A stretch of 64,000 bases of DNA from NCBI GenBank assembly GCA_964540825.1, contig CAZINT010000001.1, positions 348,565-412,564 of the forward strand, written 5' to 3'. The translations under genes and the position numbers were made by a program. The notes under the pieces are model-generated. The model saw nothing but the letters and a program-made list of their open reading frames with translations, was not told where the DNA came from and searched no databases. Positions 56 through 27,290 of the stretch are shown here, in pieces (positions within the stretch are counted from its first letter, which is position 1; every line of letters starts with the position of its first letter). The DNA comes from an uncultured Gammaproteobacteria bacterium (GTDB taxonomy: Bacteria; Patescibacteriota; Patescibacteriia; Magasanikbacterales; GWA2-37-8).

Positions 56-295
56 ATGCACGCGACACCGTATGTTGAAATGATTGTTGATGGGGAAGTG
101 GTTACCTTTATCGCTCATACTGCAGCCTATGGTTGGCAACCTGTTAGTACTGTTGAAGCGCTCAAAAAATCTGACCGGGGGAGCAAGGCTTTTCGAAAAT
201 ATGGTGCCAAGATATTTGACGAAGCACTCCGGCGGGTAAAAGAAATGTACCCTGAAGGAAGTGATCCGGCTGACGATATTTCTTTTAGCAGGTAG
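56..295 (+). CDS. hypothetical small protein
   Basis: 79-aa ORF at window edge upstream of T4SS-like ATPase; no recognisable motif. Confidence 0.3.
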   Translation: MHATPYVEMIVDGEVVTFIAHTAAYGWQPVSTVEALKKSDRGSKAFRKYGAKIFDEALRRVKEMYPEGSDPADDISFSR

Positions 296-368
296 ATACA
301 TACGCTCAAGAACGATTGTTTGCTTTATCTTGTTGTTTTTGGCTAACCATTGTATACTAGAGCTATCT

Positions 369-5703: not shown

Positions 5704-5731
5704 AAATTTTTTATATACATAGATCTTTACT

Positions 5732-6616
5732 ATGGAAAAAGATTCTCGCTACTTGCCAGAGCACGTGCAAAATCGTCATTTTGGTTTTGCTAGGTTTAAA
5801 AAATTTTTATCCGAGCAGCCCGATCTTGCAAATCATTTGGTGCCACAACAGGCCAGCGAGCTCTATGAGCTGCGTGACCCCGAAAAAATAAGTGCTTTTT
5901 TAATTGAAAAATTTTCGTTATCCCAAGAACGCGCTGAGGCTTTGGTTGATGTGATTAGGCGTGAAGAATTTAAAATTTTATTATCAAAACCCGGAATCGG
6001 ACTTTCAGAACAATTTGCCGCTCGTTTTGGTGACGATCTTTTTAATGCCCGGGATTATCAGACGGTTCAAAGGATTTTAACTGAAAACATTCCAAACGCG
6101 GTTTTAAAGGGTACGCTTTCGAGTAAAGTAATTAATATATGTGAATATAGAGGAATACCGATTGCACTTGACGAAGCGGAGCTTGAGCGAGCCGGGGTCG
6201 AATTGGGGCGACCGGACGAATTTGCCGTTGACAGTGCGCTCGCATTCGAAAAAAAAACTATTACTGACAATGACACTGAAACGTTTGCTGAAGGTAGCGA
6301 TAATCAAAAGTACTTAACGCAGGCTGGGAAAGTGCCCGAAGAGGTTGGCGCTACAACTTTTTATGATAACAAACGAGCGACATTACGATCGTCATCGCGC
6401 CCAGTTAAGGAAAATTCCAGCACTACATCTGCTCCTGAAAAAGGACCTGAAGGGAGTACCTTTTTTGTGCCACCAACACCAACACAGCCGCCCAAAACTA
6501 TTTTTGATCGTGGCACGGCAGTTAAAGATCTGCCTAAAAAAATCAAGCATCTTGATGATTTTGAGGCTCCGACTGATATTTTAAACCGTGCGCCCAAAAA
6601 AGATAAGGTGGCCTAA
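5732..6616 (+). CDS. hypothetical protein
   Basis: 294-aa ORF, no recognised domain; Pro/Thr-rich C-terminus. Confidence 0.35.
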   Translation: MEKDSRYLPEHVQNRHFGFARFKKFLSEQPDLANHLVPQQASELYELRDPEKISAFLIEKFSLSQERAEALVDVIRREEFKILLSKPGIGLSEQFAARFGDDLFNARDYQTVQRILTENIPNAVLKGTLSSKVINICEYRGIPIALDEAELERAGVELGRPDEFAVDSALAFEKKTITDNDTETFAEGSDNQKYLTQAGKVPEEVGATTFYDNKRATLRSSSRPVKENSSTTSAPEKGPEGSTFFVPPTPTQPPKTIFDRGTAVKDLPKKIKHLDDFEAPTDILNRAPKKDKVA

Positions 6617-6634
6617 ACTTCGTGAGGCTAGGGA

Positions 6635-6662
6635 TTGACAGGACGGCCGAGGCTTGTACTAT
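6635..6662 (+). promoter_or_regulatory. sigma-70-like promoter for dnaG-rpoD (TTGACA-16-TACTAT), very short leader
   Basis: TTGACA at 6635-6640, TACTAT at 6657-6662, ATG at 6675. Confidence 0.4.
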
Positions 6663-6674
6663 AGATGTACTTCT

Positions 6675-8471
6675 ATGACTGATACTCAGACAATTAAAGA
6701 CCGGGTGAGCGTCGTTCAGTTGATCCAGGAATATGTACCGTTAAAGAAATCCGGAGCCAACTGGAAAGGACGCTGCCCGTTTCATAATGAAAAATCTCCT
6801 TCTTTCATGGTGCACGAAGAAAAGCAAATGTGGCATTGCTTTGGGTGCAGTAAGGGGGGGGACATTTTTGCGTTTATCCAAGAAATCGAAGGAGTCGCTT
6901 TTCCGGAAGCACTCAAGATACTGGCTACGCGTGCCGGAGTCGTGCTCGATACTTTTAAGAGCGAAATTAATAGCAGTCAGCGCAACCGTTTGCTTGAGAT
7001 TCACGCCAAGGCAACTACCTTTTTTCACAAAATTTTACTCGATGTACCGCAAGCCAAACCGGCTCGTGAATATTTGGCGAAGCGCGGATTGGACCGCGCT
7101 GCTATTGAACTGTGGAATATTGGGTATGCACCCGAACAATGGGATTTATTGACCAAGTATTTAGTTGGCAAAGGTTGTACGCGTGACGACTTGGTGGCCA
7201 GTGGGCTCGTTATTCGGCGTGAAGATGCTGATCCCAAAACCGGTCGCGGCTTTTACGATCGTTTTCGCGGACGCATCATGTTTCCACTTTCGGATGTGCA
7301 GGGCGCAGTGGTAGGCTTTACCGGCCGTGTCTTGGTTGAAACAGAGCGTTCGGGTGGAAAATACGTGAACAGCCCACAAACGCTTATTTATGATAAGTCA
7401 CGGCTTTTATTTGGATTATCTAAAGCAAAAACAGCTATTAAGGCGCAAGGTTTTGCAGTTATCGTTGAAGGGCAAATGGATGTGATTGCGTGCCACCAGG
7501 CGGGGATGCTCAATGTCGTGGCGGCTTCCGGAACGGCGCTTACCGCTGAGCAGCTTAAATTATTAAAACGCTACACGACGACATTGTGTATTTCTTTTGA
7601 CGCAGATAGTGCCGGGCTCGCCGCAGACAAGCGGGGGATCGATGCAGCGCTCGAAGCGGGTATGGCAGTTAAAATTGTCAGTATCCCCGAGGGTGCCGGC
7701 AAAGACGCTGACGAGTGTATTAAAAAAAATAAGACAGTGTGGTTTAAGGCAGTAGAAGAAGCCAAGGGGGTTATGGAGTGGTATTTTGAGGTTGCTTTTA
7801 AAGGTAAAAATACTGCTACACCAGCCGGCAAGCAGGCGGTGGCGAGTCTGCTTGTTCCGCAAATTAATCGAATTCAATACCCTGTAGAGCGGGATTTTTG
7901 GCTCAAAGAGTTGTCGTCCCGGCTTCAAATCGACCCCTCGGTACTGGCCGAAGAAGGTCGGCGTCTGAAAGAGCCAGTCTTAAAGAATCGCTTTATTACG
8001 CAAAAAAACACCCCCAGTGCTCCAAAGGCACTGTCTCGCCCCGAACGCCTTGAGCTACTCCTTGGCGCCACCTGGTCACTCCTGAGTGCCTACCCGGATC
8101 ATTTCCCAGAGCTTAAAAATAATGGTTTTGAGGCTCGGTTTATGCAAGGATCGGCATTCATGCCCCTTTACGATTTATATGAAAAGCACTATACTATGAG
8201 CCAAGGAAGCGATTCTGACTGGCTTAAGCGGTATGTTCCGGTTAGCCCCGAGGTGTCGCTCGAAATTTTGCAGTTGCGCGCCGAACGCGACTACCCGGGC
8301 ACAACTACGGCTACGGCTTTGAAAGAACTCCAGAGTTTGGTTGTAGTAGTGAGAGAGGAGTGGCTCAAACGACAGCGCAAAGACTTGCAGTTCCGGATTG
8401 AACAGGCTGAGAGAGAAAAGAATACAGAGCTCCTCAAACAGTTGCTCCAGGAGATTCAATCGCTCGCATAA
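6675..8471 (+). CDS. dnaG: DNA primase
   Basis: CHC2 zinc finger 'CPFHNEKSPSFMV..HCFGCSKGGD', TOPRIM region 'VIVEGQMDVIA..SFDADSAG'; start moved to ATG 6675 downstream of promoter -10. Confidence 0.85.
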   Translation: MTDTQTIKDRVSVVQLIQEYVPLKKSGANWKGRCPFHNEKSPSFMVHEEKQMWHCFGCSKGGDIFAFIQEIEGVAFPEALKILATRAGVVLDTFKSEINSSQRNRLLEIHAKATTFFHKILLDVPQAKPAREYLAKRGLDRAAIELWNIGYAPEQWDLLTKYLVGKGCTRDDLVASGLVIRREDADPKTGRGFYDRFRGRIMFPLSDVQGAVVGFTGRVLVETERSGGKYVNSPQTLIYDKSRLLFGLSKAKTAIKAQGFAVIVEGQMDVIACHQAGMLNVVAASGTALTAEQLKLLKRYTTTLCISFDADSAGLAADKRGIDAALEAGMAVKIVSIPEGAGKDADECIKKNKTVWFKAVEEAKGVMEWYFEVAFKGKNTATPAGKQAVASLLVPQINRIQYPVERDFWLKELSSRLQIDPSVLAEEGRRLKEPVLKNRFITQKNTPSAPKALSRPERLELLLGATWSLLSAYPDHFPELKNNGFEARFMQGSAFMPLYDLYEKHYTMSQGSDSDWLKRYVPVSPEVSLEILQLRAERDYPGTTTATALKELQSLVVVVREEWLKRQRKDLQFRIEQAEREKNTELLKQLLQEIQSLA

Positions 8472-8501
8472 AATTATTGTCTTATATCTAATTTTACCCC
8501 C

Positions 8502-9857
8502 ATGACTGCTAAGGCCATTCTCTCTTCCGCGGCTCGTTCTAAAAAGAAGAACAAAGCCCCGAGTGTCAAACCAAAGGCAGTTTCACTTAAAAAGAAACCA
8601 GCCGCCAAAGCAGCTCAGCGTAAACCGCTCAAAGCAATTGCTAAAAAGATTCTCAAAAAACCGCTCGTAAAAAGTGTTTTAAAAAAAGGCGCTGACACCA
8701 AATCCAAGTCAGCAAGTAAAGGACCGATCAAAAAATTTGTTCCACCGCAACCGGAAATTGTGGTAGAGCCGACGATGGAGCAGATTTGGGAAATTTTACT
8801 GAAAGGCCGTAACCGCGGCTTTGTCACCGAAATTGAACTGGGCCGCGTCATGCCGCGCCCGGAATGTTACCTTGACTTGTACGAGGGTTTTTTGGATTTA
8901 ACGGATAAAAATGGTGTCACAATTGTAGAGACGGCCAGCAACTTGCTTGGTGTTGCCGGTGAACAAAAAACAACACTTAAACAGTTTCAGGGTGCCCAGC
9001 CGGATATGGATGTACCGTTTGATTTGGGTCAAATTTCTTCCGACTCGATCCAGATGTATTTACGCGAAATTGGTAAAATTCCACTGTTGAATACTGAGGA
9101 AGAAGTATCGCTTGCCAAGCGTAAAGAACGCGGTGACAAAGCCGCAGAACGCAAGCTGATTGAAGCCAACCTGCGCCTCGTTGTTTCAATTGCCAAAAAA
9201 TTTGTGGGCAAAAGTTTATCGCTCCTCGATTTGATTCAAGAAGGCAATATTGGTTTATTCCGCGCGGTGAAAAAATTTGATCACCGGAAAGGCTACAAAT
9301 TTTCAACCTACGCCACCTGGTGGATCCGCCAGGCTATTACTCGCGCTCTGGCTGACCAGTCGCGTACGATTCGTATTCCGGTCCATATGGTGGAAACGAT
9401 TAATCGCTTCCAGCAAGTTCGCCGCCGTCTCTTGCAAGACCTTGGCCGCGATCCAACAGTAGAAGAACTGGCTGCTGAAATGGGTGAAGAGGTGGAAAAG
9501 ATTCAGCATATTATCAAAATTTCTCAGGATATGGTGTCCTTGGAAGTATCGGTTGGTGACGATGATGATGACACCCAGCTGAGTGACTTTATTGAAGACG
9601 TCAAAAATATTTCTCCGGATCGTGCTGCAGCTCTCCAGATACTCCGCGACTACGTGCAATCTGCCGTTAAAGACTTGGTGCCTCGTGAACAAAAAATTCT
9701 CGAAATGCGTTTTGGTCTGACCGACGGCGTTACTCATACGCTCGAAGAAGTGGGGCAGGAATTTGGTGTTACACGCGAACGTATCCGTCAGATTGAGGCA
9801 AAAGCCTTGGAACGCATTCAGCAGTCGGATATTATTACCAAGCTCAGGGATTATTAG
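8502..9857 (+). CDS. rpoD: RNA polymerase sigma-70 factor RpoD with Lys/Ala-rich basic N-terminal tail
   Basis: Region 2 '[55 protein letters not shown]', region 4 HTH at C-terminus; dnaG-rpoD synteny. Confidence 0.85.
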
Positions 9858-9911
9858 GGTCCTCGTCTTTTGAATCAAGCTACGCTTTTTTAAGCTATTG
9901 ATTTAGAATTT

Positions 9912-10991
9912 ATGAAAATAATTTTTTCCGGTGGCGGAACACTTGGCCCGGTGACGCCGCTCTTGGCAGTTGCCGCTGCCTACAAGCAAGCTCATCCGGA
10001 CGCTGAGTTTATTTGGGTTGGGACAAAGTTTGGTCCCGAGCGTCAAGTCGTTGAAGAGGCTGGTTTAACCTTTTATCCGCTCAATGGTGGAAAGTGGCGC
10101 CGCTATCTTTCGTTTTGGAATATTGTGGATATTATCAAAATTATCGTGGGCTTTTTTCAAGCCATGATTTTTATTTGGTATGAAAAACCGGACTTGCTTG
10201 TTTCTGCCGGCGGGTTTGTCAGTGTGCCGCTGCACTATGCCGGGTCGTTCCTCGGGATTCCAACCTGGGTGCATCAGCAAGATTTGCGCGTCGGTCTGGC
10301 TAATAAGCTGATGTTTAGCGTGGCAACCAAAATTACGGCAGCGCTCGAACAAACCGCCAAGCAACTTCCATCCAAAAAAACCGAATGGATTGGTAACCCT
10401 TCGCGCGAGTTAGTCTGTCAAAATGCCAACCAGGCCTGTACGCATTTTAATATTCCTGCCGGAAGTGTGGTTATTTTTGCGGTAGGCGGGGGGACAGGGT
10501 CGAACACCATCAACCGCATGATCGTCGAAGCGCTGCCGAGCTGGCCAAAAGACTGGCATGTGATTCACTTGACCGGCAAAGAACGTTCCAGTGAATTAGC
10601 GGAGCGTGTGGCAGCAATTTTTCCCAATTACCATGCCTATAAATTTTTTACCGGTGAAATGGCTTGCGCGTATGCACTTGCTACCATCGTCGTTGCCAGG
10701 GCCGGGTTTGCGACGCTCACGGAACTGGCCGCACTTTCAAAAGCCGCCATTATTTTACCGATGGCCGGAACACACCAAGAAGAAAATGCTTCGTATTTTG
10801 CCAGTCAAAGTGGCGTAATCCAATTTCACGAAACCATGGACACCGGTTTAAAATTGGCGCAGGTAATTAAAGAATTAGCAAATGACCCGATGAAGCGCCA
10901 AATGCTCGGCAATAATTTGCATCAGCTGTTGCCTCAAACCGATGATGCAAAAATAGTTGCAATTATTGATGGTTTAATTAAAAAATTCTAA
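9912..10991 (+). CDS. murG: undecaprenyldiphospho-muramoylpentapeptide beta-N-acetylglucosaminyltransferase (GT28)
   Basis: N-terminal 'FSGGGTLGPVTPLLAVAAA', C-terminal UDP-sugar binding 'GGGTGS..ARAGFATLTELAAL' pattern of MurG. Confidence 0.75.
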   Translation: MKIIFSGGGTLGPVTPLLAVAAAYKQAHPDAEFIWVGTKFGPERQVVEEAGLTFYPLNGGKWRRYLSFWNIVDIIKIIVGFFQAMIFIWYEKPDLLVSAGGFVSVPLHYAGSFLGIPTWVHQQDLRVGLANKLMFSVATKITAALEQTAKQLPSKKTEWIGNPSRELVCQNANQACTHFNIPAGSVVIFAVGGGTGSNTINRMIVEALPSWPKDWHVIHLTGKERSSELAERVAAIFPNYHAYKFFTGEMACAYALATIVVARAGFATLTELAALSKAAIILPMAGTHQEENASYFASQSGVIQFHETMDTGLKLAQVIKELANDPMKRQMLGNNLHQLLPQTDDAKIVAIIDGLIKKF

Positions 10992-11002
10992 CGCATACTT
11001 GT

Positions 11003-11548
11003 ATGACTGAATCTATTATTTTTGGCGGTGGGTGTTTCTGGTGTATGGAAGCGGTTTTCCAAATGCTTGAGGGGGTCACCGGTGTTGCTTCCGGCTACAC
11101 AGGCGGCACAATTCCGAACCCAACCTATGAACAAGTGTGCACTGGTCGCACCGGGCATGCTGAAGCGATCAAAATTGATTTTGATCCTGCTAAAATTAAG
11201 CTAACAGATTTATTGGCGGTTTACTTTACATCGCACGACCCAACCACTTTGAATCGGCAGGGGAATGATGTGGGTACGCAGTATCGTTCGTCAATTTTTT
11301 ATAGCACACCCGAACAGCTCGAAATAACTAAAAAATTTATTGCCGAGCTTGAGGCTGATAAAACTTTTTCAGATCCTATTGTTACGACACTAGAGCCGCT
11401 CACTCTATTTTATCCAGCGGAACAATATCACCAAAATTATTACCGCAACAATGAAAGTCAACCATATTGTCAGTTCGTGATTAATCCTAAAATTACTAAG
11501 CTGCGTCAAAAATTTGCGCACTTATTAAAGCCGGGAATGACAGCTTAA
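11003..11548 (+). CDS. msrA: peptide methionine sulfoxide reductase A
   Basis: Catalytic 'GGGCFWCMEAVF' and 'HDPTTLNRQGNDVGTQYRSSIFY' motifs. Confidence 0.85.
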   Translation: MTESIIFGGGCFWCMEAVFQMLEGVTGVASGYTGGTIPNPTYEQVCTGRTGHAEAIKIDFDPAKIKLTDLLAVYFTSHDPTTLNRQGNDVGTQYRSSIFYSTPEQLEITKKFIAELEADKTFSDPIVTTLEPLTLFYPAEQYHQNYYRNNESQPYCQFVINPKITKLRQKFAHLLKPGMTA

Positions 11549-11596
11549 TAGAGGCGTGAAATAAATTTGCAGTTTAGGTGTAATAACAGAATACGC

Positions 11597-11625
11597 TTGC
11601 AACCAATTTTAGTTGCCGGTATACT
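11597..11625 (+). promoter_or_regulatory. sigma-70 consensus promoter (TTGCAA-17-TATACT) upstream of FMN-binding lipoprotein gene
   Basis: TTGCAA 11597-11602, 17-nt spacer, TATACT 11620-11625. Confidence 0.45.
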
Positions 11626-11665
11626 ATTAAAAATTATTTATTATTAACATTAATGCTCTGTTACT

Positions 11666-12250
11666 ATGAGTCAAAAGAATATCAGCAAATTTTTAGCTGT
11701 TTTTTCACTTTTAGCGGTAGCAGTCACTGCTAGTGGCTGCGGCGCAGCTGCCACAGATTCGACTAATGCTACTTTGCCAACGGATACTGGCGCAGCTATG
11801 ACTCCTTCTGATACAGGTGCGGGCGGCGATATTCGGACTGATGAAAGTATGAACGGCGGCCTGGATACGACCCCTCCGGCAACTACTACCGATACCATGA
11901 CGCCTCCTGCCAGTAATCCTCCGGCAGCTGTGCCCGCAGCAAATAAAAGTTCTTATAAAGATGGTACTTACACGGCTGACGGCAGTTACCGCTCACCGGG
12001 CGGCACTGAAGGTGTTGGCGTTACCCTTACCCTTAAAAATGATGTCATTACCAAAGTGACCGTTGTTTCGAAGGCAAATGACCCGATGTCTACTCGTTAC
12101 CAGGGTATGTTCATTGCCGGGATCAGTGATGTAGTTGTTGGTAAAAAAATTAATGAAATTAAAGTTTCTAAAATTTCCGGTTCATCGCTTACTGCCGGTG
12201 GATTTAACGATGCTGTTGTTAAAATTGAGGCTCAGGCTAAGAATTCCTAA
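11666..12250 (+). CDS. secreted lipoprotein with C-terminal FMN-binding (FMN_bind) domain; predicted ApbE flavinylation substrate
   Basis: Lipobox 'LAVAVTASGCG'; Thr/Pro-rich linker; C-terminal domain with 'KISGSSLTAGG' resembling the S-G-A-T flavinylation motif. Confidence 0.55.
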   Translation: MSQKNISKFLAVFSLLAVAVTASGCGAAATDSTNATLPTDTGAAMTPSDTGAGGDIRTDESMNGGLDTTPPATTTDTMTPPASNPPAAVPAANKSSYKDGTYTADGSYRSPGGTEGVGVTLTLKNDVITKVTVVSKANDPMSTRYQGMFIAGISDVVVGKKINEIKVSKISGSSLTAGGFNDAVVKIEAQAKNS

Positions 12251-12264
12251 ACCCACGAATAGGT

Positions 12265-13134
12265 ATGTTTTCGGCTGATTTTGAAGCGATTGGAACGCAT
12301 TGGAAAATTGATATTTTTGAAGAAATTCCAGCCGAAAGCTCCAAAAAAATTATCGAGAAAATAAAAGCCCGTATCGATGTGTTCGATCGGGCTTATTCTC
12401 GTTTTAGGGCGGATTCGCTCGTGACCGAAATGTCACACCGCGCGGGCACCTACACGCTGCCCGGCGACGCTAAGCCGATGTTTGACCTTTATCATGATTT
12501 GTACAAACGGACTAATGGCCGCTTTACACCGCTTATTGCTCAAACGTTGGTTGAAGCAGGGTATGATGCCGAATACTCGCTCCAACCAAAAGCGCTGCAT
12601 CGTCCGCCGACGTGGGACGAAGCGTTTGAGTATGCGTATCCAGAGCTTACCCTCAAACAACCCGCGCTCCTTGACGTGGGTGCGGCAGGCAAAGGGTATA
12701 TTATTGATATTGTCGCCCAAATTCTCTATACTGAAGGCGTAACAGCTTTTTGTGTCGACGCTGGGGCAGATATGTTCTACGCGCACCCTGCCAATAAATT
12801 GCTCGAAGTCGGTTTAGAAAATCCGTTTGATACCACCGAGGTAATTGGTGTGGCTACCATTGCTAATGAAAGTATCTGTGGTTCGGCAGGCAATAGGCGC
12901 GCCTGGAAAAATTTTCACCATATCATTGATCCGTCAACGCTTGCGTCGCCCCGAACGATCGCTGCAGTTTGGACAATTGCCGATAGCGCACTTCTGGCCG
13001 ATGCGCTTTCCACCTGTCTGTTCTTTGTCTCGTCAGCCACGCTTGCTCCGCACTATGATTTTGAATATGTAATTTTGTATCACGATTTTTCTATTGAAAA
13101 GTCACCATATTTTCCGGGCACTTTTTTTAAATAA
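12265..13134 (+). CDS. apbE: FAD:protein FMN transferase (ApbE family)
   Basis: ApbE-like sequence throughout (289 aa) and adjacency to FMN_bind lipoprotein. Confidence 0.7.
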   Translation: MFSADFEAIGTHWKIDIFEEIPAESSKKIIEKIKARIDVFDRAYSRFRADSLVTEMSHRAGTYTLPGDAKPMFDLYHDLYKRTNGRFTPLIAQTLVEAGYDAEYSLQPKALHRPPTWDEAFEYAYPELTLKQPALLDVGAAGKGYIIDIVAQILYTEGVTAFCVDAGADMFYAHPANKLLEVGLENPFDTTEVIGVATIANESICGSAGNRRAWKNFHHIIDPSTLASPRTIAAVWTIADSALLADALSTCLFFVSSATLAPHYDFEYVILYHDFSIEKSPYFPGTFFK

Positions 13135-13146
13135 TTAAATTGTGTA

Positions 13147-13210
13147 GCAGAGTAGGCAGAATAAGTACTAGGCAGAGTAAGTATTTGTTAACTTACTCTG
13201 CCTACTCTGC
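13147..13210. repeat. nested inverted/direct repeat element (two tandem 'GCAGAGTA' units facing two 'TACTCTGC' units); alternative hairpins
   Basis: 13147-13159 pairs 13198-13210; 13171-13182 pairs 13191-13202; the 3' arms overlap so the two stems are mutually exclusive. Confidence 0.5.
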
Positions 13211-13215
13211 TTATC

Positions 13216-14757
13216 TTGCCTAGGACTTATATTATTATGCATTTTATCGATAATTTCCTCAACAAGTTCACGATGTATCGCGTTGTCCTCTACGGCCTCA
13301 CGTTTATTTCAGCGGTTGCTTTTATTCTCAGTTTTTTAAAAATCATCGCGTTCACACCGGCAGAACTCGGCGTTTCATTTGCAGTCCTATTTGTCACCTG
13401 CGCGTCGGTTAATTGGATTTTCGCCAAACTCTTCAAAATTCCGGCAAATGTGGAGTCGGTTTTTATTACGGCGTATATTTTGTTTTTGATTCTTATCCCG
13501 ACGACTGCACTCGCTGATATTTACTGGATGGTTGGCATCGGAGCGATCGCTATGGCCTCGAAGTACCTGCTTGTTTTTCGTAAACAACATCTTTTTAATC
13601 CGGCTGCAATCGCGCTCGTTATTAGTGGGGTGCTGGGAAGCAGCTTATCGTTTTGGTGGGTCGCGACGCCATTGCTGTTGCCGGTGGTCGCTCTCGTTGG
13701 CTTTTTGATTGTTCGTAAAATTCATCGTTTTAATATTGTTATCCCGTTTTTTATTGTCGCGCTCGGTATTTTGGTGGGGAAGGGGCTTGTCGCCGGTGAG
13801 ACGCCGGGAGCGCTCCTCAAAGAATTTTTGTTATCCTGGCCGCTTATTTTCTTTGGTACGGTAATGTTGACCGAGCCACTCACCACGCCCGCCCGTAAAC
13901 ACATGCAAGTACTCTATGGAATTGTGGTGGGTATTTTATTTTCGCTTCATTTTGAATTTAAGCCAATTTTTTCTTCGCCGGAACTGGCGCTCGTTCTGGG
14001 TAATATTTTTTCGGCAATCGCCAGTCCCAAACAACGCATGGTGCTTAAATTTAAAGAGAAAATTAAACTATCGGCCAACATGTTTGAGTTCGTTTTTACT
14101 GCCCCGCGCCATTTGAAATTTATTCCCGGCCAGTATGCCGAGTGGACACTGTTCCACCCTAACCCCGATACCCGTGGAAACCGCCGCTATTTTACGCTTG
14201 CCTCAGCACCCGAAAGCCGCGAAGTCGCCATGGGCATTCGCATTTCCGACCCATCGAGCAGTTTCAAAAAGAAGCTCTGTACGCTTGCTCCCGGGGATAC
14301 GATCATGACCTCGTCCGCCGCCGGTGATTTTGTCTTGCCCCGTGATAAGAATAAAAAAATTGTTTTTGTAGCCGGGGGTATTGGCGTAACGCCCTTTGCG
14401 AGTATCATGCGTCATTTATTGAATACGAAAGAAAAAAGAACTGTAACACAGCTGTACTCGGTGCGTACGTGCGAAGATATTGCCTATCAGCCGCTGTTTG
14501 ACCAGGCAGAAAAGGAACTGGGTATTGTGACCAAATATATCGTTACCGACACTACCTGTGTACCCAAGGGCTGGGACACGCCAACAGGATATATTTCCGA
14601 CCCCACAGTTCGTCAACTGGTGCCGGATTTTAAAGAGCGACTCTTTTATATTTCCGGGCCATTTGTAATGGTAGATGCGACGCAAAAGTTACTCAAAAAA
14701 ATGGGTGTACCGAGTAGTCAAATTAAAACAGATTTTTTCCCGGGGTTTGCGGGATAA
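13216..14757 (+). CDS. polytopic membrane protein fused to C-terminal ferredoxin-NADP reductase-like FAD/NAD(P)-binding oxidoreductase domain
   Basis: About 8 predicted TM helices in N-terminal 280 aa; C-terminal 'RRYFTLASAP' (FAD RxYS-like) and 'IVFVAGGIGVTPFASIM' (NAD(P) GGxGxxP) motifs. Confidence 0.6.
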   Translation: MPRTYIIMHFIDNFLNKFTMYRVVLYGLTFISAVAFILSFLKIIAFTPAELGVSFAVLFVTCASVNWIFAKLFKIPANVESVFITAYILFLILIPTTALADIYWMVGIGAIAMASKYLLVFRKQHLFNPAAIALVISGVLGSSLSFWWVATPLLLPVVALVGFLIVRKIHRFNIVIPFFIVALGILVGKGLVAGETPGALLKEFLLSWPLIFFGTVMLTEPLTTPARKHMQVLYGIVVGILFSLHFEFKPIFSSPELALVLGNIFSAIASPKQRMVLKFKEKIKLSANMFEFVFTAPRHLKFIPGQYAEWTLFHPNPDTRGNRRYFTLASAPESREVAMGIRISDPSSSFKKKLCTLAPGDTIMTSSAAGDFVLPRDKNKKIVFVAGGIGVTPFASIMRHLLNTKEKRTVTQLYSVRTCEDIAYQPLFDQAEKELGIVTKYIVTDTTCVPKGWDTPTGYISDPTVRQLVPDFKERLFYISGPFVMVDATQKLLKKMGVPSSQIKTDFFPGFAG

Positions 14758-14759
14758 AG

Positions 14760-15365
14760 TTAGAGAATTCTTTTGAAAGGTTTTTCGGTGATTTCTCCAA
14801 ATTCATACACCCACGGAATTCCCGTTGGAATTTCCAAAGTAATAATTTCTTCAGGCGTCAGTCCTTCTAATTTCATCACCAGAGCACGCAGACTGTTATG
14901 ATGCGCAGTAACCAAAATATTTTTCCCTTGAGCTAATTCTTTCTCGATTATTTCTTCAAAATGTTTGTGCACGCGCGCAGCGGTATCGGCCAGGCTTTCT
15001 CCCTCGGGTGGGCGCGTATCGTAGCTGCGGCGCCACAGTTTTACCTGCGCTTCGCCGTGAAGTGCGATTGTCTCGGCGTGGGTTTTGCCTTGGAGAGCTC
15101 CATAATGCCGTTCGTTAAGGGCGCTAAAAGTTTGCAGCGGTAGATGTTGTTTGTTAATCGCGGCCAAGGCGATTTTGGCAGTTTCAATAGCGCGAGTCAG
15201 TAGGGAAGTGTGGACTAATGAGATGTCAAAATCAGCGAGTTTTTCGCCAGCCAGGCGAGCTTGCAATTCGCCTTCGGCCGAGAGGGGAATATCGGTTTGG
15301 CCGGTGAAACGGCCCTCGGCATTCCAGAGAGTTTTGCCGTGGCGAAGGAGGATGAGGGTGGGCAT
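14760..15365 (-). CDS. gpmA: 2,3-bisphosphoglycerate-dependent phosphoglycerate mutase (short form)
   Basis: 'LRHGKTLWN', 'LNERHYGALQG', 'LWRRSYDTRPP', 'TAHHNSLRALV', 'IPTGIPWVYEF' match dPGM. Confidence 0.8.
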   Translation of the reverse strand: MPTLILLRHGKTLWNAEGRFTGQTDIPLSAEGELQARLAGEKLADFDISLVHTSLLTRAIETAKIALAAINKQHLPLQTFSALNERHYGALQGKTHAETIALHGEAQVKLWRRSYDTRPPEGESLADTAARVHKHFEEIIEKELAQGKNILVTAHHNSLRALVMKLEGLTPEEIITLEIPTGIPWVYEFGEITEKPFKRIL

Positions 15366-15465
15366 AATTATAATCTAAGTAGCACATCGTATTGTAACAG
15401 GTGAAAAATGGATAAGCAATTGGCAATAAAAAAATAACCTTTTACGGTTACAAATGAAGAGGGCT

Positions 15466-15500
15466 GGGCGGGGCAGCCAGTGTGAGTGGCCGCCCCGCCC
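15466..15500 (-). terminator. GC-rich hairpin downstream of the islet-1 gene
   Basis: GGGCGGGGCAGCC / GGCCGCCCCGCCC arms (one mismatch), T-run on minus strand shortly after. Confidence 0.45.
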
Positions 15501-15518
15501 GTCTAGAATTTTCCCGAT

Positions 15519-16628
15519 CTAGGTGGGGGGAGTGATGAGTCCGTGCTCCCAGTCGGTGCTGAGGAATTTGGTGAGGTGCGGACGCAGCGCCTGGATGCCG
15601 GGCAATACCAGTTCGGCGTACACCGCGAGCGCACTGCCGGCCTGGGCAAAATCAAGGGCCAGCCCGGTCAGTTCGTGCATCGAGCGGTCCAGTTCGAACT
15701 CGTGACGCATCTTTCTTCCCCGGGTGTTCTGCTGGGCGATCTCGGGGATGAAGCCTAGATGGTCGGTGAGAAAAGCAACTCCCAGTTGGCGACGGTTCGG
15801 CAGGTTCTGCTGTGTAGCCACTGAACAGGAAGCGGCAGTCAGCTCGTTGCCCTGCACTGTCGCGCTGATGCTGTACTGTTGGGTGAAGATCAGGTCCGGA
15901 AGGAGGCTCGCATTGTGCATGCTGGGCCGAAGTACCGGAGGCAGGATGGCGCTGACGCACTCTTCGTAGCGATCCAGATCCACGAAGTTCGGTCCCTCGA
16001 CTTTTTCGACACGGGGCAGCGACTTCCCGAGTTCCACGCTTTCCAGCTTGCGAAGCACTTTCTCGATCAGCTTCGCTTCTTCGCTTGCCAGATAGCGGAG
16101 TGGCCCCACAAAGTAGCGGCGCGCCCGCTCGACTCGCTGCTTGAGCTGGCACCAGTGGAAGGCGATCCAGAGCGGGCCATGATCCCGTCCGATGGGGCGA
16201 CCGTCGTCGAAGGTCCACCTGCACTTGATGATGACGTGCTCGCCGATCGTCTGGCGCATCACGTTGAGGCCGAGTCGGTAACTTCCGCGCCCGAGGGCTA
16301 CTTGGCGCAAGCCCTTATAGCGCAGCGTTCCGATGCCGAACTCCACCGTGTTCTTCTGGCCGGCGAACTCGCCGCTCGCCATTCCCTCTTCGATTCTGAA
16401 GGGGGCGAGCAAATTGCTGGGCTCATGGTAGAGCGACCACTCGGTCGGCAGGAGGGCGTCACTCGGATCGACTCTGACTTCGCCATCGCCCATGTTGTGC
16501 AGAAGGAGAAAAGGGGTCGTGGGCACCTCTTCGTAATCATCCTCGCGCACTTCCCAGGCGCCGAACGGTTGGAGGAGTGGTGGAAGTTGGGGAAAGACGA
16601 TCTGGTTCTTGTAGAAACGAGCAGGCAT
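15519..16628 (-). CDS. hypothetical protein encoded in GC-rich islet 1
   Basis: 369-aa ORF; own promoter (16766-16794, minus), SD-like 'AAGGA', downstream hairpin; no recognisable domain. Confidence 0.5.
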   Translation of the reverse strand: MPARFYKNQIVFPQLPPLLQPFGAWEVREDDYEEVPTTPFLLLHNMGDGEVRVDPSDALLPTEWSLYHEPSNLLAPFRIEEGMASGEFAGQKNTVEFGIGTLRYKGLRQVALGRGSYRLGLNVMRQTIGEHVIIKCRWTFDDGRPIGRDHGPLWIAFHWCQLKQRVERARRYFVGPLRYLASEEAKLIEKVLRKLESVELGKSLPRVEKVEGPNFVDLDRYEECVSAILPPVLRPSMHNASLLPDLIFTQQYSISATVQGNELTAASCSVATQQNLPNRRQLGVAFLTDHLGFIPEIAQQNTRGRKMRHEFELDRSMHELTGLALDFAQAGSALAVYAELVLPGIQALRPHLTKFLSTDWEHGLITPPT

Positions 16629-16765
16629 TCTCTGGTTCCTTGCTCTCCCTTTCCTGGGTTAGGCTCCGGTCGTTTGTGGCGACATGCGGAGGAGTCTTGG
16701 TGACTCTCAGGAGCAGCTCTTGCGAAGTAAAAATTACTTCGCTCAGCTGTTCCGGAGAACAGGTG

Positions 16766-16794
16766 ATAGTACATCAAATAAGTGATTTTGTCAA
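16766..16794 (-). promoter_or_regulatory. sigma-70 consensus promoter on minus strand (TTGACA-17-TACTAT) driving islet-1 gene; ~130-nt leader with two hairpins (16722-16742, 16747-16762)
   Basis: Reverse complement of 16789-16794 = TTGACA; of 16766-16771 = TACTAT. Confidence 0.45.
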
Positions 16795-16812
16795 TAATAA
16801 TGTGATAAAAAT

Positions 16813-16835
16813 AAAGACGCTTTTTAAGCGTCTTT
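16813..16835 (-). terminator. hairpin AAAGACGC-N7-GCGTCTTT immediately 3' of tRNA-Lys (minus strand)
   Basis: Perfect 8-bp stem; T-run follows on minus strand. Confidence 0.45.
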
Positions 16836-16841
16836 ACTCGG

Positions 16842-16914
16842 TGGGTCGGCCGGGGCTCGAACCCGGGACCTTATCCTTAAAAGGGATCTGCTCTACCAGC
16901 TGAGCTACCGACCC
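16842..16914 (-). tRNA. tRNA-Lys (anticodon UUU)
   Basis: Manual fold: acceptor GGGTCGG/CCGACCC, D-arm GCTC/GAGC, anticodon loop CTTTTAA, T-arm CCGGG-TTCGAGC-CCCGG; 73 nt. Confidence 0.8.
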
Positions 16915-17083
16915 AATATGGGTTTCTGGTTGTTTCTAAAATGACAAGGGAAATAATAGCACAGGCTTTTATAATAATCAAGAGCCGGGATTTCCACAGA
17001 GTAGAGCCATTTTATAATTTAGACTTTTACAGGAAGTAATGATATACTAGGGTTGTTTTAGAGCTTATTTTTAGCCTAGGTAT

Positions 17084-17659
17084 ATGATCGATCCTAAATA
17101 TTTTGGCAAAGTCCGCGAAGAACTTTTGGCCTATGCCGAGAAACGACGAGAGGTCATCAAAATGACCGGCGACGCTCAGCACCAATCGAAGCGCGCTATT
17201 TTTGCCTTGCAGCGCGATGATGCTGCTGAAGCAAAAAAATGTTTGGACGAAGCCGGCGGTCTTTTGATGAGTGTGAATAAGAAATTCCAAAAGGATCAGC
17301 GTTTGTTCAACGAAGGATCCTACCGGGCAAGTCTCGAAGAGTTTGCAGAAGCGATGCTCTTCAATCAATTTCTCATGGGTAAGTCAATCGGTGAAATTAA
17401 AGGTTTTAAAGTGGATCCGGATATTTACATTAGCGGCCTCGCTGATGTTCCAGGCGAAATTTTGCGCTATGCGATTAAATCGGCAACGGAACGAAATTTC
17501 TTGATGGTCAAAAAATGTTATGATGTTTGTGAGCGCATAATTAGCGAAATGGTAGATATGGACTTGACCGGCTATAACCGCCAGAAGTTTGATCAGGCCA
17601 AGGGTGCTTTAAATAAATTACAGCAGGTAGTGTACGAAGTAAGTTTGCAGCAGAAATAA
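17084..17659 (+). CDS. hypothetical all-alpha protein (possibly translin-like)
   Basis: 191-aa ORF, predicted helical; family assignment uncertain. Confidence 0.45.
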   Translation: MIDPKYFGKVREELLAYAEKRREVIKMTGDAQHQSKRAIFALQRDDAAEAKKCLDEAGGLLMSVNKKFQKDQRLFNEGSYRASLEEFAEAMLFNQFLMGKSIGEIKGFKVDPDIYISGLADVPGEILRYAIKSATERNFLMVKKCYDVCERIISEMVDMDLTGYNRQKFDQAKGALNKLQQVVYEVSLQQK

Positions 17660-22389: not shown

Positions 22390-22415
22390 GAAATTTTAAT
22401 AGTGGTGTGCATATA

Positions 22416-22452
22416 AAAAACAACGCCTTGTCAGCGCTGTTTTTAATTTTTT
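22416..22452 (+). terminator. Rho-independent terminator after Cas4-like gene
   Basis: 11-bp stem (one mismatch) AAAAACAACGC..GCGCTGTTTTT followed by T-rich tract. Confidence 0.45.
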
Positions 22453-22454
22453 AA

Positions 22455-22513
22455 CATCCGGGCTCACATTGGGTAACAAATTTTGTTGCGCAATGTGAGC
22501 GGCCCGGATGTGT
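22455..22513 (-). terminator. long imperfect inverted repeat downstream of islet-2 lipoprotein gene
   Basis: CATCCGGGCTCACATTG ... CAATGTGAGC(GG)CCCGGATG arms, internal spacer itself palindromic. Confidence 0.4.
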
Positions 22514-22569
22514 GGTGATTCGAGCTGCACCGGCTGCATGGTGCGTCCGGCCGCTCGAGGGAGGTCAGG

Positions 22570-23325
22570 CTAGTTGATCTTGAGCACGCGCCCCTTGAGG
22601 AGGCAGGTGGTGCTATCTCCGCACTCCTTGGTGTTCACTCCGTCGAAGGAGTACTGGAAGAACAGGACCTGCTGGAACTCCTGCCCGGAGACGAACGCGC
22701 CCGTGTCCACCGTCTGGGTCATCTGCACCGACGTGTTCGCCGGCACCTTGAACGCGAGGTTCTTCGGCTGCGCGTCCGACGGGTAGAGCACGTAGAACAT
22801 GTCGTGGCACTGCGTGCTGTTCGTGGCGTGGAGCGGGGCGGGGGACCAGTTCATGACCCGGTGTGCGTCGTCGACGCCGCCGACGTAGAGGTCGGCGTTG
22901 GCCATGAGGCGGGTCGCGCTCGTGTAGAGGTGCGAGTACGGATGCACCCAGACGTCGGTGGCCTCGGCGGTGAAGTTCGCCACCAGGACCTGCTGCCCGG
23001 GCATCTGCACCACGGACCCGCCCGGACTTTTCACGAGGTCGAGGGACGCCGAGACGACCCCCGGCACGCCCGTCGAGGCGCTCGACTCGGGGTCCTTGAA
23101 CGAGTCGTTGTCCATGCAGAAGCGGACCATCATCGGACCGGGCGGGGGGATGTCCTGGCAGACGTAGACCCCTTGGCCGTCCTTGACCGTGTACTGGTCC
23201 GACCGGCAGTCCGGCAGTTGAAGGGCGTCCTTGGCGCCCGTACCGCCGCACCCACCGGAGAGGACCGAGCTGGCGAGAAGACCGAGGCCGAGAAAAGAAA
23301 TGCTGGAAACCGCGCTGCGCCGCAT
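22570..23325 (-). CDS. secreted lipoprotein, function unknown, in GC-rich islet 2
   Basis: Signal peptide plus lipobox 'VLSGGCGG'; strong SD AAGGAGG 7 nt upstream of ATG; Cys-containing extracytoplasmic domain. Confidence 0.5.
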   Translation of the reverse strand: MRRSAVSSISFLGLGLLASSVLSGGCGGTGAKDALQLPDCRSDQYTVKDGQGVYVCQDIPPPGPMMVRFCMDNDSFKDPESSASTGVPGVVSASLDLVKSPGGSVVQMPGQQVLVANFTAEATDVWVHPYSHLYTSATRLMANADLYVGGVDDAHRVMNWSPAPLHATNSTQCHDMFYVLYPSDAQPKNLAFKVPANTSVQMTQTVDTGAFVSGQEFQQVLFFQYSFDGVNTKECGDSTTCLLKGRVLKIN

Positions 23326-23365
23326 GCACTACCTCCTTGGTAGCCGAGCAGGGCACCTTGCCCCG

Positions 23366-23409
23366 CAGACGGTACTAAGAGAAATACGTATTTCTCTTAG
23401 TACCGTCTG
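23366..23409. repeat. 44-nt near-perfect palindrome (21-bp arms) in 5' region of islet-2 gene
   Basis: CAGACGGTACTAAGAGAAATA-CG-TATTTCTCTTAGTACCGTCTG. Confidence 0.55.
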
Positions 23410-23604
23410 ACTACCGTATGTGCATGATTGCGGCATGCAACCAAAACAGGCTAGCATATTTTTATATATTTGTCAAGGATAGTATTTATTATTTCGGCTA
23501 GAATAAGGTAAAAATTTACTCTTTTTTTCATGAGTGCACATTTGCTTTATGTAGTCGCTAGAGTATACTAGGTACAAAATTTAGTTGTGCATGTAGTTTT
23601 TTGT

Positions 23605-26483: not shown

Positions 26484-26512
26484 TTGACAAAAGACTTAAA
26501 ATGTGCTATAAC
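26484..26512 (+). promoter_or_regulatory. sigma-70 consensus promoter (TTGACA-17-TATAAC) for islet-3 gene
   Basis: TTGACA 26484-26489, TATAAC 26507-26512; SD GAGGGGG then ATG 26590. Confidence 0.45.
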
Positions 26513-26589
26513 GCGTTATTCGTTTCAGCCAATTATGCTGAGCGAAGGCACATTTTACCGCGGTCACTCAGTCCACAGAGAGGGGGTTA

Positions 26590-27193
26590 CATGCCCATGT
26601 CGAAGTATGGTATTCGTTTTCTCCTGTCCTTTAACACCAAGGCGCTGAAGGGGGCCTTGGTTGGTTCCGACACCTCCGGCTACAGCCTCACCATTGGTGC
26701 TGGATTTCAGGGTGGGTGTGGGGAATGGCGAGGCAACTCTTACAGTGTTCGCCAGCCGCCCCGGGATATCGTCATCTTTGATCACTCGGTGCTGGTGGGT
26801 CTCGGCAAGATCGACCTCATCACCCTCGGTCTGTGCCTCAGCATCCTTGATGCCCGAGAGGCTCGCCAGATCCCCGATGGCGACACCGCCTTCATCGACA
26901 CCCGTAACCCCCGCTACCTGCACTTCTGGCGGTTGGTGGAGGACGCTGTCCAGAACCGGACCAGCAGCTTCGAGCACGCTGCCCCGCTCGATGTCGATCG
27001 GGTCATGGGTTTCGTCGCTTGGTTCCGGTTGAACCTGGATGTTCTGGTGGATATGGGCGCGGCAAAGACAGATGTCGTGGACGTCACTGATTTCGTCCTG
27101 GCGGCGCAGGAGTACCTCAAGGCGCTCCTTGGCGGGAACGAGCATCTCCTCGCACTGGCGCGGAGTTGGAGGGCTGCAGAGGTCGCTGCCTAG
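26590..27193 (+). CDS. hypothetical protein in GC-rich islet 3
   Basis: Plus-strand frame preceded by consensus promoter and SD; 201 aa (MPMSKYGIRF..); no recognisable domain. Confidence 0.4.
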
Positions 27194-27210
27194 CCGGGCA
27201 GCAACCAATC

Positions 27211-27249
27211 GGTCGGCAGCGTGATTCACTATCACGCTCCCGACCGACC
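27211..27249 (+). terminator. long interrupted hairpin after islet-3 gene
   Basis: GGTCGG-C-AGCGTGAT-TCACT-ATCACGCT-CC-CGACC. Confidence 0.4.
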
Positions 27250-27261
27250 CGTACCTTATAA

Positions 27262-27290
27262 TTGACACTATTTATTTCTAATACTATACT
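27262..27290 (+). promoter_or_regulatory. sigma-70 consensus promoter (TTGACA-17-TATACT) for tRNA-Thr
   Basis: TTGACA 27262-27267, TATACT 27285-27290, tRNA begins 27307. Confidence 0.45.

Follow-up and report, generated by a model that had tools for sequence, protein, structure and literature searches.

How new genes enter the tiny and largely syntenic genomes of bacteria of the candidate phyla radiation (CPR, or Patescibacteria) is the question on which the locus described here bears. It lies in a 64-kb stretch of DNA (the window; positions 348,565 to 412,564 of contig CAZINT010000001.1, GenBank assembly GCA_964540825.1), where about 1.3 kb of GC-rich sequence, called islet 1, carries one gene for a 369-aa protein between a tRNA-Lys gene and a gpmA-like gene. 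An earlier note, made from the letters of the sequence, had taken it for a foreign single-gene cassette and the first of three such islets. The answer that we favour, with a probability of roughly 0.6, is that islet 1 is an autonomous, laterally circulating cassette that resembles the morons of phages, occupies a hyper-variable slot, and has its translation gated by a new cis-regulatory RNA.

The compositional contrast described in the earlier note is borne out by a sliding-window calculation. The window as a whole has a G+C content (GC) of 0.465, and its highest value, 0.608, is found in the 1200 nt that start at 15451 (15451-16650), a z-score of 6.9 relative to the islet-free background (mean 0.459, standard deviation 0.022, maximum 0.505). 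At 100-nt resolution, GC goes up at about 15450 and down at about 16700-16750. Within these borders a coding signature is shown by a single open reading frame (ORF), an ORFan of 369 aa (15519..16628, minus strand) with GC values of 0.66, 0.41 and 0.75 at the first, second and third codon positions (GC1, GC2 and GC3). It is the only frame in which GC3 is highest, and the overlapping ORFs of 274 and 190 codons lack its codon-position pattern. Codon-position GC, GC3 and the existence of homologues thus identify it as a real coding frame and as the sole gene of the islet. Neither GC3 nor codon usage is uniform with the surroundings: GC3 has a z-score of +5.6 against the 48 other ORFs of the window (0.451±0.054), and an index of the type of the codon adaptation index is 0.708, as compared to 0.782±0.029.

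The gene further has transcription and translation signals of its own. A predicted sigma-70-type promoter, TTGACA-17-TACTAT, is present at 16794->16766 on the minus strand, as the earlier note had stated, and its 10 of 12 consensus matches mark it as the likely promoter of this gene. It is followed by a 5' leader of about 131 nt (16629..16759, minus strand), the start of which is placed from the -10 box, and by a Shine-Dalgarno (SD) sequence, AAGGA, at 16641-16637 (minus strand), 8 nt before the ATG. On the 3' side, a GC-rich hairpin with 14-nt arms (15466-15500, minus strand; 9 + 4 bp with a one-base bulge per side) begins 18 nt past the stop codon. Beyond it, a short TAACC/GGTTA hairpin followed by seven T residues (15428..15450, minus strand) is likely an intrinsic terminator that insulates gpmA; this is a reading of the sequence, and a simple terminator scan called only a 5-bp sub-stem. 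Leader, SD and 3' hairpins are therefore all present by sequence reading and folding. The leader contains more than the two hairpins that had been counted in it: it folds into a 5' hairpin and a three-helix junction. Islet 1 adjoins tRNA-Lys(UUU), as noted before; this gene was located by ARAGORN at 16840..16914 (minus strand) and scores 68.2 bits with the Rfam tRNA model. It is the upstream neighbour and lies outside the cassette, 45 nt upstream of the -35 box, with the terminator hairpin of the tRNA in between. The downstream neighbour is the gpmA-like histidine phosphatase gene (14760..15365, minus strand), a conserved synteny anchor of native composition (GC3 0.49).

Comparison with orthologous regions, which were retrieved by using gpmA and the gene of a translin-family protein as anchors, shows that the islet is accessory and that slot content varies even among close relatives. 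The regions came from close genomes in GTDB with a gpmA that is 88% identical (L002, L089 and L090 of GCA_964634875.1, and L003), from a JGI population in which the translin-family protein is 96% identical (L083-L086), and from more distant genomes (L096 and L098; 70-73% identical). The flanks of islet 1 consist of housekeeping genes (dnaG, sigma-70, murG, msrA, apbE, gpmA, the translin-family gene, a Mur ligase gene, divIC and ftsEX), the order of which is conserved across relatives, whereas the content of four intergenic slots varies. The tRNA-Lys/gpmA slot is occupied by the 369-aa gene in the window, by one of 182 aa in L002 and by one of 168 aa in L083, while L096 and L098 have no GC-rich gene after tRNA-Lys. 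The 182-aa and 168-aa genes are 38% identical to each other, encode predicted membrane proteins, have a GC of about 0.60 and a GC3 of about 0.72, and are unrelated to the islet-1 gene, so that all three genes found in this slot have a GC of about 0.60. The slot between gpmA and a gene for a 506-aa oxidoreductase-like protein is empty in the window, with the two genes 2 bp apart. In L002 it holds a homologue of the islet-1 gene (GC 0.61, GC3 0.78), in L003 an unrelated 150-aa secreted-type ORF (GC 0.58) and in L083 a 104-aa ORF (GC 0.52). The homologue in L002 is thus situated across gpmA from the islet-1 slot, within 2 kb, and the protein it encodes is 42% identical to that of islet 1, against 88% for the flanking gpmA.

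The two other slots are those of islets 2 and 3. Between genes for PDDEXK and PIF1 proteins, the window has islet 2 and L089 an empty spacer of 42 bp; between a 112-aa gene and tRNA-Thr, the window has islet 3, L089 a homologue that is only 27% identical (GC 0.56), and L083 none. Each cassette of which the upstream sequence was read possesses its own TTGACA-type promoter with an AT-rich spacer, a style that is also found in native promoters such as that of tRNA-Thr. The ten cassette proteins that were tested gave no match in Pfam, NCBIfam, PHROG or PADLOC, the Pfam set being without the islet-1 family proteins P0003-P0008. In none of L002, L083, L096 and L098 was the islet-1 gene seen at this locus with native composition. 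Foreign composition, a single gene, own transcription signals and accessory distribution together support the cassette reading of the earlier note, and islet 1 is one case of recurrent GC-rich ORFan single-gene units that are gained and lost at a few slots. The intergenic DNA of the relatives is too diverged for exact mapping of breakpoints, and a literature search yielded no paper on GC-rich islets in CPR genomes or on the sequencing run behind the window genome.

Some further variation was observed around these slots. L096 has a GC-rich (0.62) single-gene islet of 121 aa at 4673-5038 (minus strand), between a methyltransferase gene and uvrD, which is missing in L098; as L096 is a more distant relative, the GC-islet phenomenon extends across the clade. 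In L083, a 519-aa gene (1377-2936) of native composition is inserted between the sigma-70 gene and murG, which are adjacent in the window (9857/9912), so high GC is not a feature of every variable insertion in this lineage. The gpmA-like gene has its best matches beyond the two close relatives, at 52-56% identity, in Nitrospirales and Myxococcota rather than CPR bacteria, and is not in this neighbourhood in L096 and L098; gpmA itself may be an older acquisition of this sub-lineage. As to the host, the translin-family protein has homologues with 63-68% identity that are labelled 'Candidatus Magasanikbacteria' and 'Patescibacteria group', and judged from such matches of flanking proteins it is a CPR/Patescibacteria bacterium.

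The protein encoded by islet 1 belongs to a very small family. When 5.8 billion protein clusters were searched with a word index, only the query came back; a profile search gave the query and P0008. HMMER, run exhaustively against 1.84 billion cluster representatives, gave seven proteins: besides the query and the L002 homologue (43%), there were five with 25-29% identity over matched stretches or 20-25% across alignment A2. Family members are 347-379 aa long and share an N-terminal FPxLYPL motif, W-x-Y/F-x-D, LWxxxxWxxLxxRV, DL...ELPP, GF-x-FL-xx-LLG-x-VP-x-A-x-QNTGG, and a C-terminal F...W/EE. The islet-1 protein is soluble and has a pI of 6.3; neither signal peptides nor transmembrane segments are apparent from sequence or model, here or in the family as a whole, in which the pI is near neutral. 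A hint of nucleic-acid binding from charge was dropped, as the pI of the family (5.1-8.7) is uninformative. An AlphaFold2 (AF2) model (pLDDT 81, pTM 0.74) predicts that an antiparallel beta-sheet domain at the N-terminus precedes helices, beta-hairpins and a C-terminal helix of 45 residues. Neither sequence nor fold gave a match in Pfam, NCBIfam, PHROG, PADLOC, PDB or BFVD, in agreement with the unknown function given in the earlier note. No family match was confirmed in IMG/VR (two profiles and the leader pattern) or in JGI metagenome contigs (two profiles), and no homologue came from a named organism or from a phage or plasmid record. The contexts of the family members are of lower GC or CPR-like, with the exception of L082. 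The suggestion of a high-GC donor such as Actinobacteria was not upheld: all seven members among the 1.84 billion representatives are metagenomic, and none comes from a named actinobacterium or other named high-GC donor.

A second conserved component is the leader RNA. In the window it folds at -49.8 kcal/mol (z = -3.7 relative to shuffled sequences). Promoters and leaders of the window and L002 share about 80% nucleotide identity, even though the proteins are only 42% identical, and one block of 39 nt contains two differences. A conserved motif of about 90 nt (16626..16719, minus strand), which is composed of the helices P1, P2 and P3, a purine tract GGAAAGGGAGAGCA, the SD and the start codon, also occurs upstream of P0008 in L082, P0004 in L092 and P0006 in L094, the proteins being only 21-24% identical in alignment A2. 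Invariant are the block GCURCUCC and the GGAAAGGGAGAGCA purine tract; the near-invariant blocks GCURCUCCNGARAG and GGAAA(G/C)GGAGAGCA(A/G)(A/G)GGA end 4-9 nt before the start codon. In P1, GCURCUCC(N) pairs with (N)GGAGAGC immediately 5' of the SD, with a closing pair that changes from U·G to C-G to G-C; P2 is a 5-bp hairpin (GAGUC/GACUC) with two compensatory pairs, and P3 is a hairpin variable in both length and sequence.

The alignment of the five leaders supports this structure. RNAalifold predicted a three-helix junction of 18 pairs, five of which show compensatory change. For P1-P3, 93% of the cells are paired, as compared to at most 54% when the partners are slid by 1-3 columns, and the observed covariation was reached by 1 of 500 column shuffles. 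A covariance model (R1) scores 86.8 bits on the window leader and 69-81 bits upstream of four homologues, and within 135 kb, comprising the window and ten related loci, it matched only the five leaders. The pattern of the motif was found nowhere else in the window, including the regions upstream of islets 2 and 3. Since R1 matches only these five leaders, the motif is specific to the islet-1 gene family and not common to islets 2 and 3. With Rfam 15 at the gathering thresholds only the tRNAs of the window passed, and a permissive scan (E <= 10) gave chance-level matches to microRNAs and small RNAs in 15400-16850; the loci of the homologues had no Rfam hits. Judged by these comparisons, the leader RNA is new, belonging to no described family and not being in Rfam.

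The leader contains a competing structure as well. In the minimum free energy folds of all five full leaders P1 is not formed, and the invariant 8-mer pairs with an upstream GGR-n-NAGC element to make a 5' hairpin, P0 (16705..16758, minus strand), the 3' strand of which is the invariant GCUGCUCC. P0 and P1 are mutually exclusive. P0 is also conserved, with 94% of the cells paired in alignment A8 as against 20-46% in slid alignments, and with one compensatory pair. Two conserved helices thus exclude each other by competing for one strand, and the other partner of P1 abuts the SD, which is the architecture of a translational switch; we therefore propose the leader as a candidate cis-regulatory RNA, which would be a riboswitch or else an operator to which the encoded protein binds. 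A small upstream ORF in the leader was considered as a conserved element and discarded, as it is present in the window and L002 only.

Since homologues occur in five contexts with their own TTGACA-type promoter, four of which carry the leader RNA, the circulating unit appears to be a ready-made cassette; as read from these upstream sequences, what circulates is the gene with promoter and leader attached and not raw host DNA. The five are all the homologue contexts from which upstream DNA was recovered. The promoters of the window and L002 have the block TATTGACAAAAT in common. At the other end, the architecture of the post-stop hairpin of islet 1 recurs after the L002 homologue (approximately L002 6712-6747) with a different stem sequence: in both cases a GC-rich stem of 7-9 bp with single-base bulges carries a 4-bp GGCC/GCCA upper stem. 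This conservation agrees with a joint movement of the entire unit, promoter and 3' hairpin included.

The mechanism that we envisage would work as follows. The strong sigma-70 promoter would produce a monocistronic islet-1 mRNA, the leader of which could fold in two exclusive ways: P0 would sequester the invariant GCURCUCC, or P1-P2-P3 would form, with GCURCUCC paired to the likewise invariant GGAGAGC beside the SD. A factor that tips the balance between P0 and P1, which may be the encoded protein (autoregulation) or a small ligand (riboswitch), would gate the initiation of translation, and the 3' hairpin and T-run would end the transcript ahead of gpmA. The cassette most likely entered the tRNA-Lys/gpmA spacer by recombination of incoming DNA and not through an integrase, and it would have displaced a 168-182-aa cassette of the kind seen in relatives.

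Several observations weigh against this reading. Thermodynamically, P0 is favoured over the P1-enforced fold by 7-14 kcal/mol, and P1 and P0 are each almost invariant, with one compensatory pair each. The RNA model is built from five sequences with an effective number of 2.6, and the family member P0005 (L093) has a short leader that lacks the motif. Lateral transfer rests on composition and on a patchy, position-shifting distribution, as neither a donor nor a vector or insertion scar was found. The GC of the family is also relevant here. GC3 is 0.75 in the window, 0.78 in L002, 0.75 in L082, 0.75 in L094, 0.62 in L092 and 0.61 in L093, and 0.35 in L095, where a partial gene lies beside lepA on a contig of 39% GC. 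Four members are visibly embedded in lower-GC DNA, namely those of the window, L002, L092 (upstream GC 0.36-0.48) and L094 (downstream GC 0.30). The gene upstream in L094 is, by eye, alanine-racemase-like. A high GC3 (0.61-0.78) is thus found in six of seven members that are only 20-43% identical, several of them in lower-GC DNA, and the maintenance of GC down to an identity of about 20-25% speaks against one recent import with subsequent amelioration. It fits better with repeated sampling by these genomes from a distinct pool of GC-rich genes, or with a force that maintains GC.

Among the alternatives, recent direct capture of a gene from a high-GC host or neighbour, e.g. an actinobacterium, whose raw DNA has not yet drifted in composition, is unlikely, although it has some appeal. 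CPR bacteria are commonly epibionts, the islet combines a GC of 0.61 and a GC3 of 0.75 with a genome of 0.46 GC, and islet 2 even has a GC3 of 0.925, which is typical of genomes of about 68-70% GC. However, the homologues are all metagenomic sequences, without any from a named organism, and the AT-rich promoter and leader travel with the gene in the window, L002, L092 and L094, while in L082 a TTGACA-17-TAGTCT box lies further upstream. Moreover, the two copies in this lineage are only 42% identical and equally GC-rich, and the member on the 39%-GC contig has a low GC3.

We give a similarly low probability to the possibility that islet 1 is a native, vertically inherited and fast-evolving gene, the GC of which is held locally, e.g. 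by GC-biased gene conversion at a hot spot of recombination or by selection on mRNA structure or stability. The presence of a homologue within 2 kb of the same position in a sister genome would agree with this, as would the persistence of high GC3 over deep divergence, the native style of the promoter, and the fact that islet 3 and its counterpart in L089 share a slot at 27% identity. On the other hand, the slot is without the islet-1 gene in L083, L096 and L098, with an unrelated gene in its place in L083 and L002, and the L002 copy is found across gpmA, its promoter, leader and hairpin having shifted as a unit. The GC3 shift of +30 to +47 points is also far larger than reported effects of gene conversion.

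It is quite improbable that islet 1 is cargo left behind by a prophage or an integrase-mediated island that targeted tRNA-Lys. What can be said for it comes from GCA_964634875.1, where tRNA-Lys is split and a second copy of its 3' 42 nt follows a block of foreign-looking genes (L002 3917-3958). Yet in 14700-17100 of the window there is no integrase, partial tRNA copy, duplicated tRNA 3' end, direct or inverted terminal repeat, or transposon end; the GC-rich cassette of L002 lies outside the duplicated segment that resembles an attachment (att) site, and there are no PHROG matches. The pattern of insertion near tRNAs that was pointed out earlier is only partly supported: islet 1 (tRNA-Lys) and islet 3 (tRNA-Thr) do lie near one, but targeting of tRNAs is not supported, there being no integrase or att site at islet 1, and cassettes of relatives are also found at the gpmA/506-aa and methyltransferase/uvrD sites, away from tRNAs. 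The tRNA-Lys gene itself stands beside the translin gene in all relatives examined, its position being matched in L083, L096 and L098.

Two side observations concern this tRNA. At L002 3917-3958, tRNA-Lys is represented by just its 3'-terminal 42 nt, which start at the anticodon loop and are preceded by 186-aa, 258-aa and 560-aa subtilase-like genes, whereas the 5' half is found at the end of another contig (L090 1-28). This looks like an integrative island in tRNA-Lys, the att duplication of which has broken the assembly. In L090, a GC-rich region of about 260 nt (~215-470, minus strand) lies between the translin gene and tRNA-Lys, after a TTGACA-17-TATTAT promoter; it begins with GGGGGAGAGG, ends with a T-arm-like GAGGGTTCAAATCCCTC and a complementary tail, and is absent from the window. 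From these features it resembles a transfer-messenger RNA (tmRNA) or tRNA-like RNA, and neither ARAGORN nor Rfam made a call on it.

A chimera or contaminant, in which the assembler joined GC-rich DNA of another organism, is largely refuted. The borders of the islet are sharp in composition and the genome is derived from a metagenome. There is, however, an independently built Logan contig from run SRR11567520 that is 100% identical to positions 5519-16911 of the window and spans both islet borders. Since this contig is identical across both composition borders, a chimera is very unlikely, as is the misassembly at the junctions that the earlier note had mentioned as a possible objection. Furthermore, the borders coincide with the promoter and the terminators and not with arbitrary points, and assemblies of other projects (L002, L003 and L083-L086) have homologous or analogous cassettes in this neighbourhood too. 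The Logan contig does stop inside tRNA-Lys, which could be counted in favour of a chimera, and the same run also holds a second related CPR bacterium (L099, SRR11567520_1886560; translin-family protein about 70% identical); this second genome probably explains the break in a shared tRNA-Lys. The proposal that the islet is mainly a large structured non-coding RNA gene, with the 369-codon ORF as a by-product of high GC, can practically be dismissed: GC-rich islands in AT-richer genomes often signal structured RNAs, long ORFs (274 and 190 aa) overlap in other frames and the leader truly is a structured RNA, but only the 369-aa frame has GC3 > GC1 > GC2, its homologues keep their motifs across 20-43% identity, the AF2 model is confident, and Rfam has no match, so that it is ruled out for the islet body, the leader excepted.

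The two other islets that had been noted are real, variable among relatives, and high in GC3. The product of islet 2 (22570..23325, minus strand) is a lipoprotein-like ORFan of 251 aa with a signal peptide that ends in an LSGGC lipobox, and the gene has a GC3 of 0.925; its promoter, TTGACA-17-TAGCCT, is at 23476->23448 (minus strand). In the region 22400-23500, its leader contains a perfect 19-bp hairpin (~23423-23368), and the PDDEXK gene next to the islet-2 slot is also missing in L083. Islet 3 (26591..27193, plus strand) encodes a 200-aa ORFan with a GC3 of 0.74, has a TTGACA-17-TATAAC promoter at 26484-26512 (plus strand), and ends about 110 nt before tRNA-Thr. What is called as a protein in public data (NCBI, Logan) is a 234-codon ORF on the opposite strand (26564..27268, minus strand), probably a mis-call due to the high GC. 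A search by tblastn with islets 1 and 2 gave no match in phage and plasmid records. The GC-rich patch at 1500-2650 is not an islet, being the Pro/Ala/Ser-rich tail of a 793-aa VirD4/TraG/HerA-like ATPase (261-2642). The low-complexity C-terminal tail of this ATPase, of about 330 aa, mimics an islet by its GC.

Among the cassettes of relatives, a bulged hairpin of 57-59 nt, AAGRCTGCTC...GAGAGCAGYCTT, is found 3' of three GC-rich cassettes that belong to two unrelated gene families. Copies are located at L002 4607-4665 and 6768-6826 and at L083 8995-9051 (also in L084-L086), with a simpler version in L093; the lower stem (AAGRCTGCTC / GAGCAGYCTT) is conserved and the upper stem covaries. The hairpin could be a shared terminator, processing site or recombination site, but as a common recombination site for islet 1 it was ruled out, since it is absent from the window.

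It is instructive to compare islet 1 with known systems. Closest to it in anatomy are the morons of phages, a concept associated with Hendrix and Juhala. These are autonomous promoter-gene-terminator units, often of deviant composition, located between genes that are adjacent in relatives. Islet 1 is similar in having its own predicted sigma-70 promoter, one gene and a deviant GC, a terminator of its own being likely, and the cassettes of this lineage split genes that are adjacent elsewhere, such as gpmA and the 506-aa gene (2 bp apart in the window, with a cassette in L002, L003 and L083) or the PDDEXK and PIF1 genes (42 bp apart in L089, split by islet 2 in the window). The similarity is limited at the tRNA-Lys/gpmA site itself, where the close relatives L002 and L083 hold another cassette and not an empty site. 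Islet 1 also differs in being placed among housekeeping genes of a CPR chromosome and not in a prophage, with no matches in PHROG, phage records or IMG/VR that would indicate residence in a phage, and it is more GC-rich than its host, whereas textbook morons are mostly AT-richer than theirs. With tRNA-linked islands it shares a composition that is an outlier, a position beside a tRNA and variable presence among relatives, but it comprises only 1.3 kb and one gene, has sister cassettes away from tRNAs, and was rejected as an integrase-type island, as integrase and att repeat are both lacking.

Integron cassettes are likewise single-gene units, often ORFans, with an imperfect 3' hairpin that is reminiscent of the 57-59-nt hairpin of the relatives' cassettes. 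The islet cassettes, in contrast, have their own promoters and are scattered singly, with no array and no intI nearby, and attC consensus ends were not seen by eye at the cassettes. With its own promoter, gpmA and tRNA-Lys as neighbours, and no array or intI, islet 1 was rejected as an integron cassette. The flexible (replacement) islands of free-living marine bacteria are comparable in that one slot holds non-homologous or diverged genes in different strains, but the islets are single ORFan genes with a strong GC excess and not multi-gene glycosylation clusters. As to the leader, it has in common with riboswitches and autogenous leaders, e.g. those of ribosomal protein genes, a multi-helix element of about 90 nt with invariant single-stranded or junction nucleotides and covarying stems, which abuts the SD, has a competing hairpin and is better conserved than the protein it precedes. 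It differs in belonging to no Rfam family and in being tied to one tiny ORFan family, with five examples, no clue to a metabolic ligand, and no terminator-type expression platform seen. Cassette and leader thus fall in known kinds, i.e. a laterally acquired islet and a cis-regulatory leader, while the persistent GC excess and the recurrent turnover of slots are unexplained.

A further-reaching interpretation, which we consider possible but rather doubtful, is that islet 1 is one visible member of an undescribed pool of GC-rich ORFan cassettes with promoters of their own, turning over at fixed intergenic slots in Magasanikbacteria-like CPR bacteria. The islet-1 family would then be a co-evolving pair, a protein of new fold and a dedicated new regulatory RNA (riboswitch-like or autoregulatory) that move jointly, and it may also exist as a free circle or tandem of about 1.2 kb. 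A separate observation concerns L093 (Logan SRR7658145_1425, 1267 nt), which contains just a promoter, the gene of the 347-aa P0005 and hairpins, and of which the first and last 29 nt are identical. This suggests, from the contig sequence, a circular molecule of about 1.24 kb or a tandem repeat; an artefact of the assembly graph at a palindromic hairpin is a possible explanation of the identical ends as well.

For the biology of CPR bacteria, the locus indicates that strains can acquire new genes without integrases, in the form of single-gene cassettes that bring their own expression signals and enter at a few recurring intergenic slots. The GC of the incoming ORFans is unlike that of the host, and neither capture of host DNA nor simple amelioration accounts for the pattern. 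The leader and the fold-orphan protein form a compact and testable RNA-protein pair, and the leader is a well-defined candidate for a new class of cis-regulatory RNA. If the existence of a cassette pool is true, this pool would keep its high GC despite a long stay in low-GC hosts, and it could be an accessory layer that ultra-small bacteria use for host interaction or phage defence.

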